A stretch of 64,000 bases of DNA from NCBI RefSeq assembly GCF_988242995.1, contig NZ_OZ547043.1. The stretch is one strand, 5' to 3'. The first letter of the stretch is position 1. Every line of letters begins with the position of its first letter. The notes beneath the pieces were generated by a model, which ran no database searches, was not told the origin of the DNA, and saw only the letters and a list, made by a program, of their open reading frames with translations. This document shows positions 47,326-60,589 of this stretch, piece after piece. The translations under genes were made by a program, and so were the position numbers.

Positions 47326-48732
<1,407 letters not shown>

Positions 48733-48791
48733 GATGCGCCAGCATCGCATCCGGCACTGGCTCCCAGGCCACGCCAGATGCGCCATGCTGG

Positions 48792-51700
48792 TTACTGGAA
48801 GCAGGTCACCAGACCCGGTTTATTCATTAGCGTGATACTACAATCCTGTGCTCCAGTGCCTTCGTCCATTCCACACTGTTGAGAGGACAAATAAGGAAAA
48901 CTTGGTGAAGACGGCCATCCCAGTGAATTAAAAACAGTGTGCAACAACTCTAATTCATTGTATGTCGGTGCATTTTCTATGCTGCCACACTGCCTTGCAA
49001 TATCCCATTTACTGGCATCAATGATATGTGCAGAAGCCCAGTTTTCGTAGTTAATAATCGGTGAGGATACGGGATTAGCCCCGGACGGCAATTCTGTCGT
49101 TAACAACGGTCGATGTAGCGATTTACCATTCACCACTACAGTGTCTGCCATATGTCCCCAAAAGTGCGCCGAGGAAACATTCGGGCTGGTTGGTACCGTA
49201 AAAATAGCGTCCAGCGTGTCTGTCGCGGAAGCGTAATTAGCCAGAGTAACCGTCAGTGGCGTTTTATAACCAGGGGTATTATCCTGGCGGAGCGTAAAAC
49301 TTGCCGTCCCATCCGCGCCTGTCATGCCACTAATGGTATTACCGCTTTCACTCAGCGTAACAGCCGAACCAGATAACGGCTGAACGATGAGATCGTCCAT
49401 CGCCACCACATCACCATACAACGTCGCCCCAGCGTTACGCGGCGATGCATCGCCACGTTTCAAAGTAAATTCCACATTCGGTACCGTATTCCCGGCGCTG
49501 TCTTTCACCGTCACGGTAACGGGCATGGCTTCGCCTTTTTTCACTTTCGCCGCCTGAATAGCTGCGTCAAACGCTGTTGAGGTCAGTGTGACGCTGGAAA
49601 CCGTTGCGCGCGCAGACACCAGACACGCCTGATAAGCGGCATTACCATTCAATGTCGTTGTGCCATCTTTCATATTGAGCGACTGATTTTTACCATCTGT
49701 AGTCTTATCCTGCGCCCACCAGTAATAATAAACTGACCAGCCAGTTTCCGTCGTAAGGGTGTTATTGGGATAACGTTGATACAGTGACTTCATATCGCTG
49801 AGCAACGGTTGCCGGGCTTCCTCACAAGGGCTGAGGCTGGCATTTGCTTTAGTGGTTGACGAAAAATAGGGCCAGTCCTCATTATTGTTATTGGTTTTAT
49901 TTACCCCGGAGGTCGATGGCAGCTCCTTCCACAATTTCGGTCGTTCAAAGACGGTTCCATTTGCCGCTGTCACCGTTTCTGGCATATGACCCCAGTAGTC
50001 GGCATCCTGGGCGTCAGGGCTGGTGACCACGGTAAATATCAGGTCCAGGTTTGACGTGATCTGCGGATCTTGTGCAAGCGAGACCGTAAACGGCGTTGCC
50101 AGGCCGGTGGTGGCGTTTTGCGTAACATTGAACGTCACTGTGCCATCACTGCCGGTAAAACCAAGCCATTTTGCCGTATCCTGAGCAAAGGAAATACGGG
50201 TTGCTGTCGGTGTGACGACATCTACAATAAGATCATCTGCCGACGATGAGGGCCTAATTCCTGAACGACTTTTCGCCTGCGCCCGCTGAAGCGTCACGCT
50301 CTCGCCACTCAGCAGGTTGCCATTTTGGTCTTTTACTGTCACGACTAACGGGATTGTCTCGCCCTTTTTCGCCGATGCCGAAGGTGTACCGCCGTTACTG
50401 GCGGTTTTCGTCTCATCAAATGCTATTGAAGTCAGGGTAACGCTTGACGGCTTAGAGTGAGGCTGTGCCAGGCAGAGCATTAGAGCAACCGGAGAGAGTG
50501 CGGATGATACTCGTCCCGTACTTAGGTTAAAGACCTGATAATACCAGGAGCTACCATTGGAGTTAAGCAATTCATAAATCCACCAGTTTCCTGACGCTAT
50601 CGGCAACCCCAGATCTTTCGTTAACGCCCCGTTTGGGTGATCGTCATATAACCCCTGCAATTCGCTGAGGCGCGGTTGATATTCCAGCGAACAATCTGCC
50701 GTCGCTTTTTGAGTACTATATATATATGACCATGTCTCATTATTACCGTTTACCGAGCTCCCCGTAGTCGCTTCCGCTGCCAGTAATGGGCGCTTGAAGG
50801 TCACGCCTGCCGAACTGGTAAACGTTTCCGGCATATGGCCCCAGTATTTCGCTTTTGGCGAATCCGGGCTGGTTATCACCGTGAAAATGACATCCAGCGT
50901 GACGCTTTTCGAGGTATCGCGCATGAGTTCTGCGCTGAGCGGCGTTGACAGCCCATAACTGCTATTCTGGCTGACCTCAAACGTAGCTTTACCATCGCTC
51001 CCTGTCTTCAGGAGAGCCTGCGTCCCATCCCCATACAAGATTGACGTTACCCCAGTAGGTTCCACAGGTATGATGGTAAGATCATCTGCAGAAGCATCGT
51101 ACGCAGCTTTAGCGCGGTTCAGCGCAGTCCCTCGTTTAAGGTTAAAGCTGGCACCTGGCAGTGGATTGCCTGCGCTATCTCGCACCGTAACCGTCATCGG
51201 GATAACCTCTCCCTTCTTCGCTGTTGCGCTGGGCCTGCCATCATTGCTGGCCGTTTTCGTTGCATCCTCCGCCGTTGAGGTCATTTCAATAGAAGCCGCC
51301 TCTGGATGAGGGTTTACCAGGCACAGCATTAATGCCGAGGTGCTTGAAGACGCTCTTCCACTTGATCCATTTAACAGATAAATATATTGATCGTACCAGT
51401 TACCCGCATATGCCACCATGTCGTAAGCCCACCAGTAGCTATTTACCGGAATACCCAGATCGGTCTTTATCGCACGACTTGGGTGTTCGTCGTACAATGC
51501 CTGTAGTTCGCTTAACAGTGGTTGATAATGTACATCGCACCCGCTTTTATCGATATCCCCCTTTGTTGCCGATCTCAACACGGCCCACTCTTCATTGTCT
51601 TCTATAAACGACTGGCCCGACGATCTTTCAGCAGAGAGTAAGGGGCGTTTGAAGGCAGTACCAGAACGCGTAGTGAACGTTTCCGCCATATGCCCCCAGT

Positions 51701-54700
51701 AACTTGCCAGGGGGGTATCCGGGCTGGTTATCACGGTAAACATCACGGGTAATTTGTTGGATTCCAGGCTCGACTGATAGGCCTGAGCGTACACATTGGT
51801 TACCAGGCCTATAGAATCATCCTGCTTTACCGTAAACGTGGCTGTCCCGTCTGCACCTGTCACCGCATAAAGGGAGATTGATGGAGTATCCACTCTTGCC
51901 GACGTTCCCGCTGCGTTGATTACAGTGATAGTTCTGTTCGACAACTGTACATTCTGGCGATTTGTCGATCCTTCACGTTTGAGAATAAACGGAACATTTG
52001 GTACGACATTTCCCTGCGCATCTTTTGTCACCACGCGAATCACCGCGTCGTCACCTTTTTTCCGTTTTAGTGCGCTGAGGGTTTCGTCAACTTTGACAAA
52101 TTGTGTCGCATCGTTCGCTTCAACAATAATGTGGCTGGTCACCGCCACTGGGGTAGCCCGACAACTTAGCAGTCCTAGACTGCTTGACATGACCTCCGTT
52201 CCATCACCCGTTTTTAACGAAACCGCTTTAAAATTAAATGTTTGAGTGTAATAGGCAACAACCGTACTGGAGATATAGGCGCGTGATACAGGCCATCCCG
52301 TAACGTCATGTATTGGCACGTAACCTTCATCGGCATACAGTGACTCCAGCTCACTTTCAATCGGGACATATCCTGCACCGCAACCATTTACAGATGTGTT
52401 GTTCGACTGGTCCGGCGAGAACAGTGACCAGCTCTCTCCATCTTCCTGAAAAGAGCTTCGACTGGTTGTAACGGAAAGCTCATCTTGCAATAACGGTCTT
52501 TTATAAATAAGCCCGCCTGCACCGGTCATCGTTTCGGCCATATGCCCCCAGAATTTTGCTTTAGGGGTATCGGGGCTGGTTATCACCGTAAAGACCACCG
52601 GAAGCATTGATTTTACGTTATTATCTGTATCCAGCATGGCGGTCAGTTCGGTTTTTAAACCCGTGGTATTGTCCTGTTTCAGTGCAAGTGTTGTCGTACC
52701 ATCTGCGCCGGTAACGCCATAAATCAGTGCTGTTGTTGAGGAAAAATTACTCTGCGTGTTACCCCAGGCATCCGTCACGATGAGCGCGCCTGCTGTCACC
52801 GTTGTAGACGCATTTGCCCGATTGACGCTAAGGTTACGTTTAAGCGTAAACGCGGTATTTCCCACCGGGTTACCCTGCGAATCTTTAGTGGTCACGCGAA
52901 CCACGACTTCTTCCCCTTTTTTCGCTTTGACAACATTATTCGTACTGTCAAATTTCGCGGGGTCCGCAGCCTCAAGAACGATTTGGCTTGCCTTGACGAT
53001 CGGCGTCGTCTGGCAGGTAAGCAGTTCTTTTGTGGCCGATGGAATTATCGAACTGGTGCCTGAACTGAGATTGACGGCCTTGAAGTCACGCTGTTCCAGA
53101 CTACTGCTGCCTGTCGTGCTGGAAAGGTAACTTGAGGCGACGGGCCAGCCCTGAACCGTTTTCATCGCATTGCCGCGGTTGGCTTCATACAATGACTCCA
53201 GCCCGGCCTGGGAGGGAACATATTCACTACCACAACCATTAGAGGATGTGCTTGTCGCCTGAGTTTGGGTAAATTGCGCCCAGTCCTCATTATCTTCTGC
53301 AATCGCTGTTCGACCCGACGTACTGGATAACTCTTTCAACAATAATGGGCGTTTAAAGACCGTTCCATCCACAGCCGTCACCGTTTCAGGCATATGCCCC
53401 CACATTTTCGCCTTATCGCTGTCCGGGCTGGTGACAACGGTAAAAATGGTATCGAGGGTCGCTTTTTTCGTTGTGTCTGAATAGAGCGCGGCGGTCAGCG
53501 ACGTTTTTGTGCCATGGGTATCCGGGCGGGTAATAGTGAGAATTTTAGTGCCATCGCTGCCGGTCATCGCGCTGTATGCTGCGGCGGTATCATTGAGCGA
53601 AGTTTCATCCGCCAGGCCACTATTGATCACAACCGGCGCAACCAGCGCATCACCGCTACCGGCAATGTGTTTTTCGTTTGATCGGGTATAACCATCGCCA
53701 CGCTTCAGCGTAAAAGGCATATCACCCAATGGATTGCCCTGAGCATCTTTTACCGTCACCTTCACCTGTAGCGTTTCGCCTTTTTTCAGCTTCGCCGCAT
53801 TTGCTGCCGCGTTCCACTGCGCCGGGTCCACCACTTCCAGCGTAATGCTGCTGGCAGGATTGTTAGCCGTCGTCAGGCAACTGACATAAACCGCCGTGCT
53901 ACCGCCAATGGTCCGCGCGCCATCGTTGAGGGCTATGGTGTAGTAATGCGGCACCTGATCCGCGGGCGAACTGCTCCAGTAGGGCTGACGCTGCGTTGGC
54001 CAACCGTGTACCGTTTGAACGGCGTTACCGCTGTTAGCATCATAGAGCGCGTTAAGCTGGGAACGGCGTGGGAGCATATTGGCACCACAGCCACCTTTAC
54101 TGGTGCTGGAAGTGTTGGCCTGGCTAACGCGCGACCACACTTCGTTATTTTCCGTTAATGTGCCGTCCGGGCTGAACACTTCCGCAGCCAGCCGGGGTCG
54201 GGCAAAGGTTAATGCATCGACGGTAATCGTCTCATCCATATGACCCCACATCTGCGCGCCAACCGCATCCGGACTGGTGAGCGTAGTGAAAATCACATTG
54301 TAATTAACAGTATTGGGAATATAGGAGTTTACAGGCGCAATATTCAGCGGCGTCGCTAAGCCCACACCTTGCGGTTGCTTAATTTCCACAGTAGCAAAAC
54401 CCTGCGCATCCGTAGTACCTGCATAGACTAAAGACGGTTGCGATGTTCCGTAGAGCGTGCCATTCATCTCGATTGCGCCGCGGGTTGGATCATCGAAACC
54501 CGTGCTCTGCCCCTGACGATTTTTCCCCATATCTTTAGTGATGGTGAACGCGGTATACGGCACGGGCGCATTACTCAAGGCATTAAAGGTGCGTACCGTC
54601 ATGGTAATCGTTTCACCCACTTTAGCCTGCGCTCTGCTGCTTGTGGAAACATCATGATCGGTGGTCGCAGCAATCTGGGCGACCATCTCATTGCCCGAAC

Positions 54701-56834
54701 AAGAAAGGTAGTTTTGCTTAAAGCCGGAATAGGTGTCGATGTTGCCCGTGGCCAGGTTCACCGACGCGTGCGACGTCTCTTCCACCGCACTAAGATACGC
54801 TTTTTGCAACGTTGGCCAGCCATATTCGGTGCCGATGACATTGGCTGGATGTGCGGCAAACAAACTGTGCAATGAGCTTTGGCTCGGAATATGACCTAAA
54901 CCACACTCAGCCTGCATACTGCTATTCTGATCAAACAGCGCCCAGTCTTCGTTATTTTCCCGCACTGCTCCCAGTTCGTTGTCGGTTTCATCCGCCAGCC
55001 GTGGGCGTTTAAAGATATTATTCGCTTCAATAATGCCTAACATATGTCCCCACATCCGCGCTTTGTCGGAATCAGGGCTGGTGATCACCGTAAAAATAAC
55101 GTCTTTCTCATCCGAGGCGGTAAAATCACTGCGCATTTTCGCGGTGATGTGTGTTTTCACCCCCACGCCGCCTGGCTGGGTCAGCGTCAGAGAGGCCTCT
55201 CCGTTAGCATCAGTGATCCCTTCATAGGTATGGGCGTCAACTTTGCGAACGTTACTGCCACCATCAATTTGTACCGGGTGCGTCTCCCACGCAGCGTCAG
55301 TTTGATTCTTACGGTTAACACCGTCATCCAGATGCAGCGAAAAGTAGTAGTAAGCCAGCGGCTGATCGTTGTTCTTGCTATCGGTAATCGTCAGGCGTAA
55401 AGAAGCCTCTTCCCCCACCTTTACTTTCATCGCTTTTATCGTCGAATCATAACTGCCCGGCGTCAGTACCAGCTTCGGTTCAACATCGGGCGCTTCTTTA
55501 TCGACACAGCTCACAATAAACGTCGTATCGTCCGGTTTTTGCGCTTCGCTGCGGTTCGAAACATCCGCCGCATGGTGCTGGCCGCTCATCCCCGCCAGTG
55601 ATGACCAGTAGAAATTACCCTGCATCGGCCAACCAGCCACATCCTGCACTGACGTTGGCACCACCGTCGCCAGCGCACCGAAATGACGCATTCCGGGCAA
55701 AATGTCGCAATGTTTATCCGCGCCGCTCCAGGTAAAGGTGGACCAGGTTTCATTGTGATCGTTAACCGTACCGTCTTCATTATCGACTTCCGCCGCCAGT
55801 TTTGGTCGACTAAAAGTGTAATCACGGGCCTTCAGCGTATCGGGCATATGACCCCACATTGTAGCCTGCGGGACATCCGGGCTGGTGAGGACGGTAAAGA
55901 TCACTGCCGTTTCACTGGCCTGAGCAATACCCGCGAGGCTCGCGACCAACGGCGTTTTTACACCAGGGCCGTTGGCCTGGGTGACCGTAACCGTGGCAAC
56001 ACCATTCGCATCAGTAGTACCACGATATTCCGTCGCGGTGGTGGTTAATTCGGTCGTGCCCAGTTTTACCGGCGCAGTATTGTTCACCACACCCTGGCGG
56101 TTTTCAGCATCTTTGCGTTTGATAACAAAAGGAATATTCCCCACAACATTACCGACGCAATCTTTGGTGGTGACCGTTAACGTGATACTGCCGCCAACCG
56201 TCGTTTTCGCCGCACCGGAGGATTCGTCATAGCCCGCGGCGCTGACGGAAATAAGGTCACCCTGCGCGGGCGCAATCTTCAGCGTCACTTTCTGATCGGC
56301 GAGGGTCAGAACACTTTCATAGGGATAGCCCGTCGAGGTAAGTAGATATAACAGCGGCATGGTCTGCTGGGGGTCTGGCTGCGCCCAGGCGATCAGCGAA
56401 CGCCCGGCAAGGCCCTGTGCGCAAAATGAGCGATCTGCGACTGGCTGTGGGTCCAGTAAGGTGTCCGGCGTCGCGGCATCCGCCCAAACTAAAGATACTG
56501 TCGGTGGCGTTTGGTTTTCCCAACGTGGTGTGGCAATGATATCGCCTTCTCTGTCTTGCGGGTTGGTGACGAGCAATTTAGAGACGCTAACATCCGCGCT
56601 GAATTCACTCGGTTTAGCGGTAAACGCTACCTCATTCGTCTTTGCAGGATCCAGAAAGACACTGCCCTGGTAGACGGGTATGCTGGCACTGTCGGCGGTG
56701 GGCACGGTACCGTTAAATTCGCCGACCGTATCTGAAGAGTCTTGCCATGCAGATTCTGCCCATGACCACCCAGGCAGCATTGCGCTTATCAGCAATGCGC
56801 ATAACACAAGGATTTTATTCAGGGTCAGGGACAT
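48792..56834 (-). CDS. Giant (2680 aa) secreted Ig-like repeat protein, RatA/RatB-like; signal peptide followed by nine tandem ~280-aa modules
   Basis: Single uninterrupted ORF; N-terminal signal peptide [26 protein letters not shown]; nine copies of the motif FTV(I/V)TSPD...(M/F/Y)WGHM; GGAG RBS 9 nt upstream. Confidence 0.85.
49000..56100. repeat. Nine diverged tandem DNA repeats (period ~800-855 bp) inside the giant gene
   Basis: Plus-strand core catatg(n)cccca (= WGHM codons) recurs at ~49148, 49983, 50832, 51686, 52539, 53391, 54237, 55041, 55846. Confidence 0.8.
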
Positions 56835-56881
56835 GACAGAAACTCCACCGGTTGTTAAACGGACGCTTGTCGCATCAACAT

Positions 56882-56910
56882 ATTTTGCTTAATCCGGGAT
56901 TAAGCAAAAT
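56882..56910. promoter_or_regulatory. 29-bp perfect palindrome between sinI-like gene and giant gene (candidate operator or RNA structure)
   Basis: ATTTTGCTTAATCC-G-GGATTAAGCAAAAT: 14-bp arms with a 1-nt centre. Confidence 0.5.
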
Positions 56911-56919
56911 ATGCGGAAA

Positions 56920-56943
56920 CAGCATTCCCTTGCGGGAATGCTG
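56920..56943 (-). terminator. Stem-loop 12 nt after sinI-like stop (candidate attenuator / partial terminator)
   Basis: 10-bp stem cagcattccc/gggaatgctg, 4-nt loop, followed on the mRNA strand by UUU. Confidence 0.45.
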
Positions 56944-56954
56944 CTGAGTACGCG

Positions 56955-57932
56955 TTATTTGTGTTTGTAAATAATGTGAAGTTTGTAACCCTGTACCCCG
57001 TCGCCGTTTGTCGGAATGGTAAGAGCCTCTTTACCATCGCGCGCAGGACCGTTAAGGTTGGTTCTGGCCTCGTCGTTGGTCGCAGGGATGGCCAGATTGT
57101 TATTATCGAAGCTTGAGTTAACGATACCACCCGAAGTGCCGAGCTGCTGGCTGCTGCCAGAAAGTACCCAACGGAAGTCATAATTGGCGGTAACGTCAGC
57201 ATCGGTACCCGCATCAAACTTGCCGTTTTTGTTCTCATCCGAGTAAAGTTTGGCCACGTAGGTTTTGCCAAGTTCGATTGGCGTGCTGCCGTTGATAAGG
57301 TTGATACTGGTACCATCAACAAAGATGGCGACTTTCAGGTTCTGGTTAACCACCGGCCCTGGCGCAACGTTATCGCTGTCGCTTCCGCCGCCGTCGGCAG
57401 TAGAAACGTCATAAAGATGCAGCGCAGTCCCGACGTTTGGCGTACCGGTCTGCGTGGTTGGCGTAATTTCAATACCGATATAACGACCACGGTCGTCATC
57501 GGTAAGAGTGTAACTGGTCACCTTCGTTGCCAGCTCTTTTGGATCGTTACCCTGAGCGTCCTTGTAGCTCATCCAGCGGATAGTATCGATAGTCTTTGCG
57601 TTATCGCCCAATCCCCCAAGATCCACGTCGCCTTCGGTATCACCAATTTCCCAACTTACGGTTAATTTATCACCCGAGTAAAGACGCTTGTCCGTTTCAC
57701 TACCTGTCGGGCGAGCGCCTTTTAGATCAGAAGTCAACGTTACATGGTCGGCATCTGTCGTAGCGCTTCCCCCTTCCGAATAGAGCCACGGAATGGTTCC
57801 CTGGAAAATATTGGTTTCGCCGCTTTCGACCCAGGCGCTTTCTTCCGCCAGCGCCACAGGTGCCACACAATAACCTGCCAATGCCAGCGCCAATGCGATC
57901 CGGGTCAGACCGCGTCTTTTATCCTGCTTCAT
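56955..57932 (-). CDS. sinI: SinI-like secreted protein (CS54-island sivI homolog)
   Basis: 325-aa ORF with signal peptide MKQDKRRGLTRIALALALAGYCVAPVALA; AGGAGA RBS; C-terminal ~110 aa resemble the C-terminus of the adjacent SinH-like protein. Confidence 0.8.
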   Translation of the reverse strand: MKQDKRRGLTRIALALALAGYCVAPVALAEESAWVESGETNIFQGTIPWLYSEGGSATTDADHVTLTSDLKGARPTGSETDKRLYSGDKLTVSWEIGDTEGDVDLGGLGDNAKTIDTIRWMSYKDAQGNDPKELATKVTSYTLTDDDRGRYIGIEITPTTQTGTPNVGTALHLYDVSTADGGGSDSDNVAPGPVVNQNLKVAIFVDGTSINLINGSTPIELGKTYVAKLYSDENKNGKFDAGTDADVTANYDFRWVLSGSSQQLGTSGGIVNSSFDNNNLAIPATNDEARTNLNGPARDGKEALTIPTNGDGVQGYKLHIIYKHK

Positions 57933-57986
57933 TGATGCTCTCCTTAATGAACCTTCAGCGACTGGCCGACTGGCCTTACGCCAATC

Positions 57987-60164
57987 TTATTTTTTGGTAT
58001 ACAGCACGCGTAAACCGTATCCCTGCAAGCCATCTCCCGCTTGTGCGCCATAGGTTTGCGCTGCTTCGCGGTTAGTGGCCGGAATCACAATGTCCTCATT
58101 GGAAGTGTTCGCCTGTGCACCCACTTCACCATTGATGCTCTTGCCGGTAAATTCCCACTTGTAGTCGTACTGCGCCATCTCTTCGTCAGTCAGTTTTTCG
58201 ACCTGCTGGAAGACACCGTCTTTATTGCTGTCACGCCACAAAACAAATCGATAAGTGTTGTTGAGCGGCAGCGGTTCTTTATCTTTACCTATCAGGTTGC
58301 TGGGTTTAGCTGCCCCCACACGATAGATAAATGCATTTAGCCCACCAATTTCTGCCCCGAGGAAAGTGACATCCACATAGTTACTGTCGTCGTAGGGCGC
58401 AGCTTTTGCTTTCCAGCGATAGGTGCCGGGTAAGGTACTGGAGAGGGTGACAGTGCCCTTTTCTTTATCTTGTTTAGCGATAAAAACGCAGGGGTTGTCG
58501 GTCGAGCAAGGCTTGTTGGTTAACGTCACTCGTTTGTCCTGCGCGTCGTAAAGCTGCGGCGTGAGGTTATCTTCCGGCAGCGCATCGCCATTGCGGTCGG
58601 TGTTATCGCCAAAGCTGTCGGTTACATCGAGATCCATCACCACACCATCAACGCCATCTGCCTGAGCGCTGGCTTCGTGGCTGTGGTTGTTCTCTTCCGG
58701 CACGTTCGCGATGTTATTAACAATCAACTCTATTTTACGGTCCTGCTGAACGGTGATTTCCACCACGCCAGAGTTCTGTCGGTTGCCCTTTTCATCTTCC
58801 AGTGCCAGACGTACTCGCCAGGTATTGAGTTTTTCTTGTTCGGCTTTGTCAGAGCTGTACTGCCAGGCGGGCAGCACCAGGTTCCAGTGGTTATTGTTAC
58901 CCTCTGTCAGGGTATTCTCTTTGATAACCGGCATAACCAACGTGCGGGCAGCATTGTTTTTCGCCTGCCATGACGCAGCGACAATTTTGTAGTGGTGGTT
59001 GATAAGCGCGTTAATGGTCCATTTACATTTTTCCAGCCCGACGGCCGCTTCGGGAGTGTCCTTAATGACGCACTCAGGGTGCTCGTTGGTGGCATCCGCT
59101 TTTAACCACAGGGTGACATCAAGCGGATCTTTTTCTTTGTATTCCAGAACAATAAAGTTATTACGCTCAACAAAATCATGACGACTGCCCATCAACGAGT
59201 GAGCCGCTTTCACTTTATCGCTATCCAATTGATCTTTTAGCGGAACGCCGAACTGATAATTAAGAGTGGCATTAATGCTGACATCGCTGTTATCTCCGGT
59301 CCCCGCTTTATAGTCCGCCCCAACGGTTAGTAATGGCACCGGTTGATAATTCAGTCCAAGTGTTACCGCGTAGGGATCTTTCTCCAAATTATCCGTACCA
59401 AAAAGGGCGACTTCATCGCCGTAATATTGCTCGAAGACAACTTTGCCCCCCAGTTGCGGATAAGAAGGTAACCAGGCTTCGGCACGAATATCCCAGCCGC
59501 GCGCAGGGCGTTCTTCATAAAAGTCGAAATCTTCAGAGTCTTTCCAGTCAGAAAGCGGATGATAATAGTTGCCAGAGAATTTTAAATAATCAGTCCACGC
59601 TTCGCCGCCTAAACCTAAACGGCGATGTCCTCGGGTAAAATCATAATCATAAAATATATTTCCGCCCAATAACCATTCATCAAAATTATGTCTTACCCCA
59701 AGACCAATATTCCCGATTGTACGATCTTCTTTTCGTTGCGCAGAAAATTGACTGAAATAAACAGTGGTTTGATTATCGTACCAGGGAACAAAATAATCGA
59801 TGGAACTACCATCCAGATCGCCGTCCTGGCCAATGGAGAGGTTCGAACGGACCTTACCGTAGGGAGAGAGTGTGTCTTCAATATAAGATTGTGCGGTTGA
59901 GGTGATTTGACTTTGCAGATAGCTTCTGGCCTGAGATTCCAGCGCCTCAGGGGTCAAGTTTTCAAACCCTTGCGTGGCGGAGTTGATGACGTAATCGGCT
60001 CCGCGCTCTTTCAGCGATTTACCCTTGTTGGTTTGTTCATCCTGCTGTGCTGCCTGGCTACCTAAATCAGGTAACGATTCGTTTTGCTTAACATTTATCT
60101 CTGGTGCCGCGAAAGCAGCACCAGAGATAAATGTTAGCATAATACAGCGTTTCCATCGCAGCAT
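57987..60164 (-). CDS. sinH: Intimin/invasin-family inverse autotransporter (type Ve), SinH-like
   Basis: ORF 57987..60194; start chosen at ATG 60164 giving signal peptide MLRWKRCIMLTFISGAAFA; beta-barrel translocator signature (GGNIFYDYDF...LGLGGEAWTDYLKFSGNYYH) followed by passenger domains. Confidence 0.85.
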   Translation of the reverse strand: MLRWKRCIMLTFISGAAFAAPEINVKQNESLPDLGSQAAQQDEQTNKGKSLKERGADYVINSATQGFENLTPEALESQARSYLQSQITSTAQSYIEDTLSPYGKVRSNLSIGQDGDLDGSSIDYFVPWYDNQTTVYFSQFSAQRKEDRTIGNIGLGVRHNFDEWLLGGNIFYDYDFTRGHRRLGLGGEAWTDYLKFSGNYYHPLSDWKDSEDFDFYEERPARGWDIRAEAWLPSYPQLGGKVVFEQYYGDEVALFGTDNLEKDPYAVTLGLNYQPVPLLTVGADYKAGTGDNSDVSINATLNYQFGVPLKDQLDSDKVKAAHSLMGSRHDFVERNNFIVLEYKEKDPLDVTLWLKADATNEHPECVIKDTPEAAVGLEKCKWTINALINHHYKIVAASWQAKNNAARTLVMPVIKENTLTEGNNNHWNLVLPAWQYSSDKAEQEKLNTWRVRLALEDEKGNRQNSGVVEITVQQDRKIELIVNNIANVPEENNHSHEASAQADGVDGVVMDLDVTDSFGDNTDRNGDALPEDNLTPQLYDAQDKRVTLTNKPCSTDNPCVFIAKQDKEKGTVTLSSTLPGTYRWKAKAAPYDDSNYVDVTFLGAEIGGLNAFIYRVGAAKPSNLIGKDKEPLPLNNTYRFVLWRDSNKDGVFQQVEKLTDEEMAQYDYKWEFTGKSINGEVGAQANTSNEDIVIPATNREAAQTYGAQAGDGLQGYGLRVLYTKK
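60089..60136. repeat. Perfect 19-bp inverted repeat (10-nt spacer) inside the sinH signal-peptide coding region
   Basis: taacatttatctctggtgc (60089-60107) ... gcaccagagataaatgtta (60118-60136); also creates a mirror-image ORF on the plus strand. Confidence 0.9.
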
Positions 60165-60194
60165 GCACTTTCCCTGTGACAATGATACAGTCAA

Positions 60195-60373: not shown

Positions 60374-60589
60374 TTAAGCAATAACAAATTCAACGCGTTT
60401 TTTAGATATTAAATCGTGCCCATGTTGGCAGAAATAATCCACAGCACCACAAGCTTTTAACACTTGTAACGGCTGATGACACTCAGGGCAAAGTGCCTGG
60501 ACGGTAAAGTCTTTGTCGCAAGTTGCACAGTGGGCAGTCTCGCCATTGCGTTCGAGAGGGGTTTTGCAGGTTGGACAGTTGAGTGCCAT
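60374..60589 (-). CDS. yfgJ: Zinc-ribbon protein YfgJ (DUF1407)
   Basis: 71-aa ORF with two CPxC...C/H zinc-ribbon pairs (CPTCKT..CATCDK; CPECHQ..CQHGH). Confidence 0.88.
   Translation of the reverse strand: MALNCPTCKTPLERNGETAHCATCDKDFTVQALCPECHQPLQVLKACGAVDYFCQHGHDLISKKRVEFVIA

Follow-up and report, generated by a model that had tools for sequence, protein, structure and literature searches.

Background

The CS54 island of Salmonella (shdA-ratB-ratA-sinI-sinH) encodes two large proteins, RatA (1865 residues) and RatB (2435 residues), which have the same domain families and the same N-terminal domain (N-domain) as the E. coli protein analysed here. The gene for the latter lies at positions 48792-56834, minus strand, of a stretch of 64,000 nucleotides from NCBI RefSeq assembly GCF_988242995.1 (contig NZ_OZ547043.1), which as a whole is referred to as the window. 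It encodes the RatA-like protein of E. coli; the gene is already known and named and belongs to the sinH-sinI-ratA locus, which is the E. coli counterpart of the CS54 island. In both organisms the rat genes are found downstream of sinH-sinI and near xseA. The E. coli locus differs from CS54 in that it has a single nine-unit gene without ratB or shdA, and the middle units of the two are not positionally orthologous. A 2026 paper gives the genes of the E. coli cluster the names sinH, sinI and ratA ("ila" cluster) and traces the cluster back to the CS54 island of Salmonella (PMC12928451); it cites Shea et al. 2022 for the finding that deletion mutants are attenuated in urinary-tract infection of mice.

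Several other secretion and adhesion systems resemble this locus in part. In the ZirT/ZirS/ZirU system an inverse-autotransporter gene is followed by genes for Sec-dependent partners without a barrel, and the layout of sinH-sinI-ratA is alike. However, RatA exceeds ZirS and ZirU in size by a factor of about ten and contains adhesion domains, and export by a partner is only inferred for RatA and SinI. InvE and other members of the invasin-intimin family (type Ve secretion) mostly have one tip unit on a passenger that is fused in cis to an N-terminal barrel. RatA possesses the passenger-like immunoglobulin-like (Ig) domains and the adhesion domains of the tip, in nine units, but not the 12-stranded IAT_beta barrel. 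The FhaB/FhaC type of two-partner secretion (TPS; type Vb) is similar to the RatA locus in having a large Sec-exported adhesin with an N-terminal element and an adjacent gene for an outer-membrane barrel. Nevertheless, RatA lacks the TPS domain and the NPNL/NPNGI motifs, the neighbouring barrel is of the IAT_beta type and not an Omp85/POTRA TpsB protein, and the body of the protein is an array of Ig and adhesion domains rather than a beta-helix. Unlike a classical autotransporter (type Va), RatA has no C-terminal barrel translocator. The giant adhesins SiiE and BapA have no Sec signal and are exported by means of a C-terminal signal and a linked ABC transporter, membrane-fusion protein and TolC, whereas RatA starts with a Sec signal, lacks the RTX motif and has no genes for a transporter of this kind in its vicinity. 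Otherwise SiiE and BapA are, like RatA, very large, repetitive, Ig-like and highly allelic surface adhesins (PMC6540521).

A full-length RatA-like protein without a translocator or anchor of its own

An earlier note, made from the letters of the window alone, had described a protein of 2680 residues, and we found its open reading frame (ORF) to be intact: the ORF list and the translation give one unbroken frame of 2680 codons with an ATG start and no internal stops. Residues 1-2680 align with positions 1-2683 of the NCBIfam equivalog model NF011844, "RatA-like protein" (5394.7 bits; cut-off 3870), and there is no frameshift of the kind expected in a pseudogene. The NCBIfam models for Salmonella RatA and RatB also match the E. 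coli protein, at 2084 and 2273 bits respectively, both under their curated cut-offs. An annotated coding sequence of E. coli strain 135 is 99.6% identical in DNA to the gene in the window. Using the gene as a megablast query, we obtained matches in 1734 of 5426 complete E. coli genomes (about one third), chromosomal every time, and the alleles show identities of roughly 99%, 86%, and 75% or less. The RefSeq annotation of these loci gives the order der, a zinc-ribbon gene, sinH, sinI, the adhesin gene and then the convergent xseA, and names the products of sinH, sinI and ratA intimin-like inverse autotransporter, "SinI family autotransporter-associated protein" and "adhesion domain-containing protein". 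The window has the same order of sinH, sinI and ratA, adjoining xseA (47356-48732, convergent).

RatA begins with a signal peptide of the Sec type (residues 1-26; 56757-56834, minus strand, as are all features of RatA given below), read by inspection of the sequence, with cleavage after SWA and before ES. It is the only hydrophobic window of the protein. A Sec signal peptide had also been read here in the earlier note. Next comes a short N-terminal box (residues 27-46; 56697-56756) with the consensus W[QV]-x5-9-[ST]T-x-x-[IF]-x-G-T-x-P, which is common to RatA and SinI, and then an all-beta, Ig-like N-domain without a Pfam family (residues 47-213; 56196-56696; AlphaFold2 and Foldseek). The part of RatA preceding the repeats had been put at about 330 residues, which is too long: the unique part comprises 213 residues including the signal peptide, or 187 without it.

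We modelled residues 27-481 with AlphaFold2 on the basis of a 13-sequence orthologue alignment. Residues ~47-213 form a confident all-beta domain, with a predicted local distance difference test score (pLDDT) of mostly 80-92, and the BIg21 domain that follows is confident as well, whereas the adhesion domain is poorly modelled with an alignment this shallow. Foldseek gave the InvE structure 5N40 as the best match of the model, with tandem Ig domains, for example D00-D0 of intimin, next in line. In its search of AFDB50 all entries returned belonged to the Rat family (Q8ZN55 and Q8ZN56 among them) or to the invasins, and none provided a link to SinI or ZirU.

RatA itself carries no detectable translocator or anchor. 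No lipobox was matched in its first 40 residues, and the lone Cys of the signal peptide is not kept in orthologues. A scan of the sequence found no LPXTG, no NPNL/NPNGI, no GGxGxD (RTX) motif and no hydrophobic span beyond the signal peptide. Pfam searches matched neither IAT_beta (PF11924) in any third of the protein nor a TPS or haemagglutination domain. By Pfam and motif scan there is no C-terminal barrel or beta-signal, the last 680 residues consisting of BIg21 and InvE_AD domains alone, and the SinH barrel as a phmmer query gave 0 matches among Rat-like proteins. Together with the AlphaFold2 and Foldseek results, these searches bear out the earlier statement that barrel, LPXTG, lipobox, autotransporter and TPS domains are all missing. 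RatA, a protein of ~280 kDa, is a stalk that carries nine adhesin-tip modules, without a membrane anchor of its own.

The sinH, sinI and rat genes travel together

Two genes directly upstream of ratA on the same strand are intact in the window. The first, sinI (56955-57932; 325 residues), encodes a signal peptide, the N-terminal box, a ZirU-like N-domain and a C-domain resembling the C-terminus of SinH (NCBIfam and BLASTP), and matches the NCBIfam model partner_SinI at 336.7 bits (cut-off 165). The second, sinH (57987-60164; 725 residues from the RefSeq-equivalent ATG), matches inverse_SinH at 1487 bits (cut-off 999) and is the candidate partner in trans.

We surveyed the distribution of these genes in two ways. 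A scan seeded with SinI, using one genome per species, yielded 13 loci from Escherichia species, Pseudocitrobacter, Citrobacter and Leminorella. The order sinH-sinI-rat is present in every one of these loci that is long enough to tell. Their Rat proteins range from 1860 to 3008 residues, and Leminorella has two tandem rat genes. For the second survey, a profile of the nine units was searched against 1.84 billion cluster representatives (E <= 0.001), and the matching proteins of at least 600 residues were classified. The unit family is small (364 clusters) and is made up of two groups. One is formed by inverse autotransporters, in which an N-terminal barrel and the unit are part of one protein; most of them have a single unit, placed at the C-terminal tip as in InvE. 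The other consists of proteins without a barrel that have two or more units. A hidden Markov model of the Rat N-domain matches every protein of this second group with an intact N-terminus, and the box is present in all but one representative (P0101).

The genomic contexts of eight barrel-less Rat representatives from the second, unbiased search could be inspected. In seven of them the rat gene is directly 3' of a gene for an IAT_beta protein of 725-740 residues and a SinI-sized gene. In L027, the eighth context, the gene used as query comes second in a tandem rat pair, a SinI-sized gene 5' of the first rat gene is cut at the contig edge, and sinH would lie outside the retrieved stretch; its layout matches the Salmonella order sinI-ratA-ratB followed by a PATR autotransporter. 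Two of the eight cassettes are found in different chromosomal neighbourhoods. Because the cassette recurs in these eight unbiased contexts, two of them at other chromosomal neighbourhoods, sinH, sinI and rat travel as one unit. No secretion-system genes were linked to the locus in the contexts examined, and the locus itself contains no type I transporter genes.

Two further finds deserve mention. One variant at the der-xseA site (P0091; L024:8001-12851 and L025:1296-6146, on 16 contigs) is a chimera in which SinH residues 1-~505, comprising the barrel and the first passenger domain, are fused in frame to five Rat units; the SinH part is 74% identical to the SinH of the window, and the fusion is followed by an overlapping ORF of 1711 residues with further Rat units. 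Such a protein would put Rat units in cis on a SinH barrel. We considered it as independent evidence of the "Rosetta stone" type and ruled this out: the shared der-xseA site marks it as a deletion chimera formed at the same locus. The other, L005 (JAIJJM010000381.1, 3119 nucleotides), comes from a metagenomic bin assigned to Collinsella sp. and contains sinI and the 5' end of ratA with 98-99% protein identity to E. coli. It is almost certainly a mis-binned E. coli contig.

The gap between sinI and ratA (56835-56954, minus strand) has a structure of its own. It is predicted to form two strong adjacent hairpins (RNA fold -49 kcal/mol, z = -6.7), the first of them terminator-like, and a Shine-Dalgarno-like GGAG is located 8 nucleotides 5' of the ratA ATG. 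The two-hairpin layout is also found in L002:8775-8883, L009:11331-11464 and L017:10946-11036 with different stem sequences, and in the latter two a U-run comes after the first hairpin as in an intrinsic terminator. Rfam has no family matching the hairpins. This arrangement suggests that ratA may be expressed either by attenuated read-through or from its own promoter.

A box and an N-domain common to SinI and RatA

The first mature residues of SinI (AEESAWVESGETNIFQGTIP) and of RatA (residues 27-46) are alike. The box directly follows the signal peptide in the SinI and Rat proteins of all loci of the seeded survey and of three divergent E. coli alleles. Nearly all other orthologues examined have it as well: the SinI of L021 (one of ~20 SinI proteins), fetched later, lacks the W, and the Rat representative P0101 is off the pattern. 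Two types of box were recognised, ..EFxGT.. and LKxGxWQ....STxxIxGT, and the SinI and Rat proteins of one locus vary in parallel between them.

A profile-profile comparison of the N-terminal regions of SinI and RatA scored 31.0 over the box, while 59 column-shuffled control profiles scored 12.9 +/- 2.3 (maximum 19.6; z ~8). With the box masked, the next best match between SinI and Rat is TxTGxPN (23.5), and a third motif, DTEGD, is collinear. The box also appears to be specific. In a six-frame translation of the 64-kb window its pattern occurs at exactly two sites, the N-termini of SinI and RatA. Among all proteins fetched, it was found only at residues 15-38 of Rat-like proteins and was absent from all barrel proteins. 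The AlphaFold2 model of RatA leaves the box unpacked (pLDDT 51-59), as would be expected of a free recognition peptide. The tripeptide NGT in the RatA box was examined as a possible N-glycosylation sequon; we ruled this out, as SinI has Q there and the distance of the acidic residue is not fixed.

SinI combines features of several proteins. Its N-domain resembles ZirU_fam (E = 6.6e-7 / 1.5e-6, under the curated cut-off), and its last ~115 residues are homologous to the C-terminus of SinH (BLASTP against SinH 633-735, E = 9e-13). Searches of the PDB with SinI gave nothing meaningful.

How RatA may reach the cell surface

From the invariant cassette and the box common to SinI and Rat, SinH-dependent export or tethering is therefore the best-supported explanation, and we infer with a probability of roughly 55% that RatA depends on SinH for its localisation at the surface. 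Under this proposal, Sec would take RatA to the periplasm, where its Cys pairs would probably be oxidised. RatA would then rely on the co-encoded SinH for its passage to the surface, for its retention there or for both, in parallel to ZirT with ZirS and ZirU; secretion of ZirS is known to need ZirT and Sec (PMC2270342). The box and N-domain common to RatA and SinI would act as a system-specific recognition element for SinH (or SinI), and at the surface the nine modules would be presented as a multivalent and antigenically variable adhesin. The idea itself is not new. Heinz et al. 2016, drawing on the ZirT/ZirS analogy, hypothesised that the inverse autotransporter encoded alongside takes Rat-like proteins as its substrates (PMC4943183), and for IatB, the orthologue of SinH, this possibility was also raised by Goh et al. 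2019 (PMC6714894). The earlier note had likewise suggested export or anchoring in trans by SinH; the suggestion has gained comparative support from the cassette and the box, but it had been published in 2016, and modelling produced no docking in its favour (see below).

Several points weigh against SinH dependence. The conserved terminator-like hairpin implies that sinI and ratA are not simply co-expressed, and the description of SinH as an "operon partner" has to be qualified on this account. Past the box, homology between the N-domains of RatA and SinI is carried by short collinear motifs (DTEGD, TxTGxPN), and a profile search detected no direct similarity between the RatA N-domain and ZirU. 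The pore of the SinH barrel is presumably filled by its own linker, a mechanistic problem pointed out by Heinz et al. (PMC4943183). Our literature search found no experimental evidence of RatA or RatB export or localisation. A fusion of the SinH passenger (350-735), a 30-residue Gly/Ser linker and RatA 27-216 was modelled with AlphaFold2 using 19 locus-paired sequences, and here the box had a pLDDT of 25-36 with no docking predicted, although the SinH passenger was poorly modelled and contacts could only be judged indirectly, so that this outcome speaks neither for binding nor against it. Finally, genetic linkage could mean co-function without any role of SinH in export.

A more specific version of SinH dependence can be put forward tentatively. 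The box and N-domain may serve as the signal by which a true two-partner branch of type Ve secretion recognises its substrates: SinH would use it to export or dock SinI as well as RatA with its 280 kDa. Because SinI carries the box plus a copy of the SinH tip domain, it may be a connector here.

An alternative that we regard as unlikely is that RatA crosses the outer membrane without SinH, by type II secretion, in vesicles or through lysis, with SinH and SinI as neighbours serving the same niche. An ordinary Sec signal combined with folded, probably disulfide-bonded domains does give RatA the look of a type II substrate, the hairpins 3' of sinI suggest partly separate expression, and IatB alone mediates biofilm formation with no need for the downstream gene (PMC6714894). 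Such independence is, however, difficult to reconcile with a cassette that is invariant across genera and insertion sites, with a box specific to the two barrel-less genes of that cassette, and with the lack of linked secretion-system genes in the contexts examined.

Equally doubtful is a scheme in which SinI is a periplasmic adaptor or chaperone, or a bridge at the surface, and RatA is held non-covalently by SinI or by the tip of SinH instead of passing through the barrel. A Rat-type box and N-domain joined to a copy of the SinH C-domain is the make-up expected of a connector, yet this scheme leaves the step across the membrane unexplained, and the AlphaFold2 fusion gave no docking signal. 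It might also draw on the alignment of SinH, in which only two columns (residues 627 and 641) fully separate the two types of box, both at the start of the SinH C-domain. We dropped these columns as evidence of contact: two are not enough, and as they lie beside sinI on the DNA, physical linkage confounds them and a shared recombination block explains them equally well.

Structure and age of the nine units

Residues 214-2680 of RatA are wholly covered by nine pairs of BIg21 (PF05688) and InvE_AD (PF05689) domains, with Pfam E-values from 1e-16 to 1e-40; these repeat adhesin families were formerly listed as DUF823/DUF824. Unit 1 (residues 214-481; 55392-56195) was recognised by Pfam at E = 2.5e-26 and 2.3e-27 for its two domains. 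Units 2 (482-749; 54588-55391) and 3 (750-1031; 53742-54587) were delimited by Pfam and unit alignment, whereas units 4 (1032-1315; 52890-53741), 5 (1316-1599; 52038-52889), 6 (1600-1884; 51183-52037), 7 (1885-2167; 50334-51182) and 8 (2168-2445; 49500-50333) were delimited by Pfam, all with the same BIg21 + InvE_AD composition. Unit 9 (2446-2680; 48795-49499; Pfam and unit alignment) consists of BIg21 and the terminal InvE_AD. The adhesion domain of each unit has ~135 residues and a conserved Cys pair, with four Cys in unit 9, and the protein ends two residues past the conserved Cys of that unit (...LVTCFQ).

The earlier note had correctly counted nine repeats, but each repeat is made of two domains and not of one Ig-like module. 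Moreover, the motif FTV(I/V)TSPD-x6-WGHM, which had been placed at the end of each repeat, sits inside the unit, where the sequence FTVxTSPD-x6-WGHM marks the junction of BIg21 and the adhesion domain. All nine WGHM are present (residues 327, 595, 863, 1145, 1429, 1713, 1998, 2281 and 2559; spacing 268-285), while two copies of the preceding part deviate (FTTLTSPD, in unit 3, and FTVPTSPN).

The C-terminal domains of Y. pseudotuberculosis InvE (PDB 5N40), the only solved relative, align to RatA residues 208-422 with the junction motif included (E = 6e-30), a match that falls on unit 1. A profile of the nine units matches the same structure at E = 1.8e-45. By these alignments of sequence and profile, and as the best structural match is also 5N40, the RatA unit corresponds to the distal tip of an InvE-type invasin, an Ig domain followed by an adhesion domain.

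The units are old. They are 28-46% identical to each other in protein and 39-53% in DNA, and Tandem Repeats Finder detected no array with the period of a unit in the gene, just two 2-copy repeats of 9-10 nucleotides; the repeats are thus diverged in DNA and not recent duplicates, as had been noticed before. They share a 74-nucleotide core around the motif, whose nine copies are 804-855 nucleotides apart and 62-77% identical, far beyond chance. The longest exact word in common between units has 18 nucleotides, and for this reason ongoing homologous recombination between units looks unlikely in this allele. The earlier expectation that copy number can change by recombination fits the range of 5 to 10 units across alleles and species, but probably does not describe a process under way here.

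RGD (Arg-Gly-Asp) tripeptides were observed in the BIg21 domains of units 4 and 9, at residue 1045 (LKRGDGY; ~53698-53700, minus strand) and residue 2460 (LKRGDAS; ~49453-49455, minus strand). Citrobacter orthologues have an RGD at the equivalent spot of unit 1 (ITRGDALNRQ). These occurrences may be due to chance.

Allelic variation and disrupted copies

We compared the locus (47356-60194 of the window) with those of three other strains (L002, L003 and L004). DNA identity between strains is 96-98% for der and guaB, 80-91% for sinH and from <67 to 96% for sinI, while ratA is a mosaic with 67-97%. In L004, for instance, the 5' end of ratA is 97% identical and the remainder ~80%. Divergence is unusually high in the adjoining xseA too (90-93% identity), as if this gene were hitch-hiking. 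Among orthologues the number of units varies from 5 to 10, and the E. coli alleles have 9 or 7. The first four units and the last one have kept their positions, whereas the middle units have been gained, lost and are diverging. A pattern of diversity like that of the locus is typical of exposed, immune-selected surface proteins, and exposure of RatA at the surface would on these grounds be plausible.

The same observations bear on the idea that RatA stays in the periplasm, is never exposed and has a role internal to the envelope. RatA has indeed no anchor or translocator of its own, and a database label like "outer membrane protein" has historical roots and no evidence behind it. We nevertheless consider a periplasmic role improbable, given the homology of the units to the tip with which surface invasins bind their receptors, an allelic diversity and mosaicism that are extreme relative to the flanking genes, as is typical of exposed antigens, and the phenotypes in colonisation or infection that are cited for the Salmonella and E. 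coli loci (PMC12928451).

Disrupted copies of these genes are easy to find. Combat2C1 (L004:4001-12052) has an internal stop at ratA codon 1874, EcPF15 (NZ_CP054227) has an IS3-family element (ISEc31) inserted in ratA, the rat gene at L006:11472-17899 is frameshifted and the sinH gene at L016:7358-10315 is split; ratB pseudogenes have also been reported in invasive Salmonella lineages (PMC6540521). For the strain of the window, decay of ratA into a non-functional gene is nonetheless very improbable, as the frame runs unbroken for 8 kb and matches NF011844 from end to end, a ribosome-binding site is present 5' of it, and sinH and sinI are intact too.

Genes upstream of the cassette

The mechanical ORF of sinH begins at a TTG ten codons 5' of the RefSeq-equivalent ATG (MLRWKRC...; window 60165-60194, minus strand). 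The annotated SinH of 725 residues with the ATG start is the likelier product. Directly 5' of sinH is a gene of 71 residues with a zinc ribbon (Pfam Zn_ribbon_6; window 60374-60589, minus strand). It is found again 5' of sinH in L026 (2236-2451), amid different neighbours, but not directly 5' of sinH in L020. This gene may be a loose associate of the cassette or simply a core neighbour.

Conclusions

The gene, its domains and the idea of export in trans have already been described; the strictness of the cassette and the box and N-domain shared by SinI and RatA are modest additions to them. Reviews report that sinH is enriched in extraintestinal pathogenic lineages and that SinH is under development as a vaccine antigen (PMC9937491, PMC12525524). 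An adhesin of ~280 kDa that lacks a barrel and is encoded beside an inverse autotransporter bears on the problem of whether partners in trans can be served by type Ve barrels (PMC4943183). The invariant cassette of three genes, together with the N-domain and box that SinI and RatA have in common, gives a concrete and testable handle on the question of how RatA is exported.

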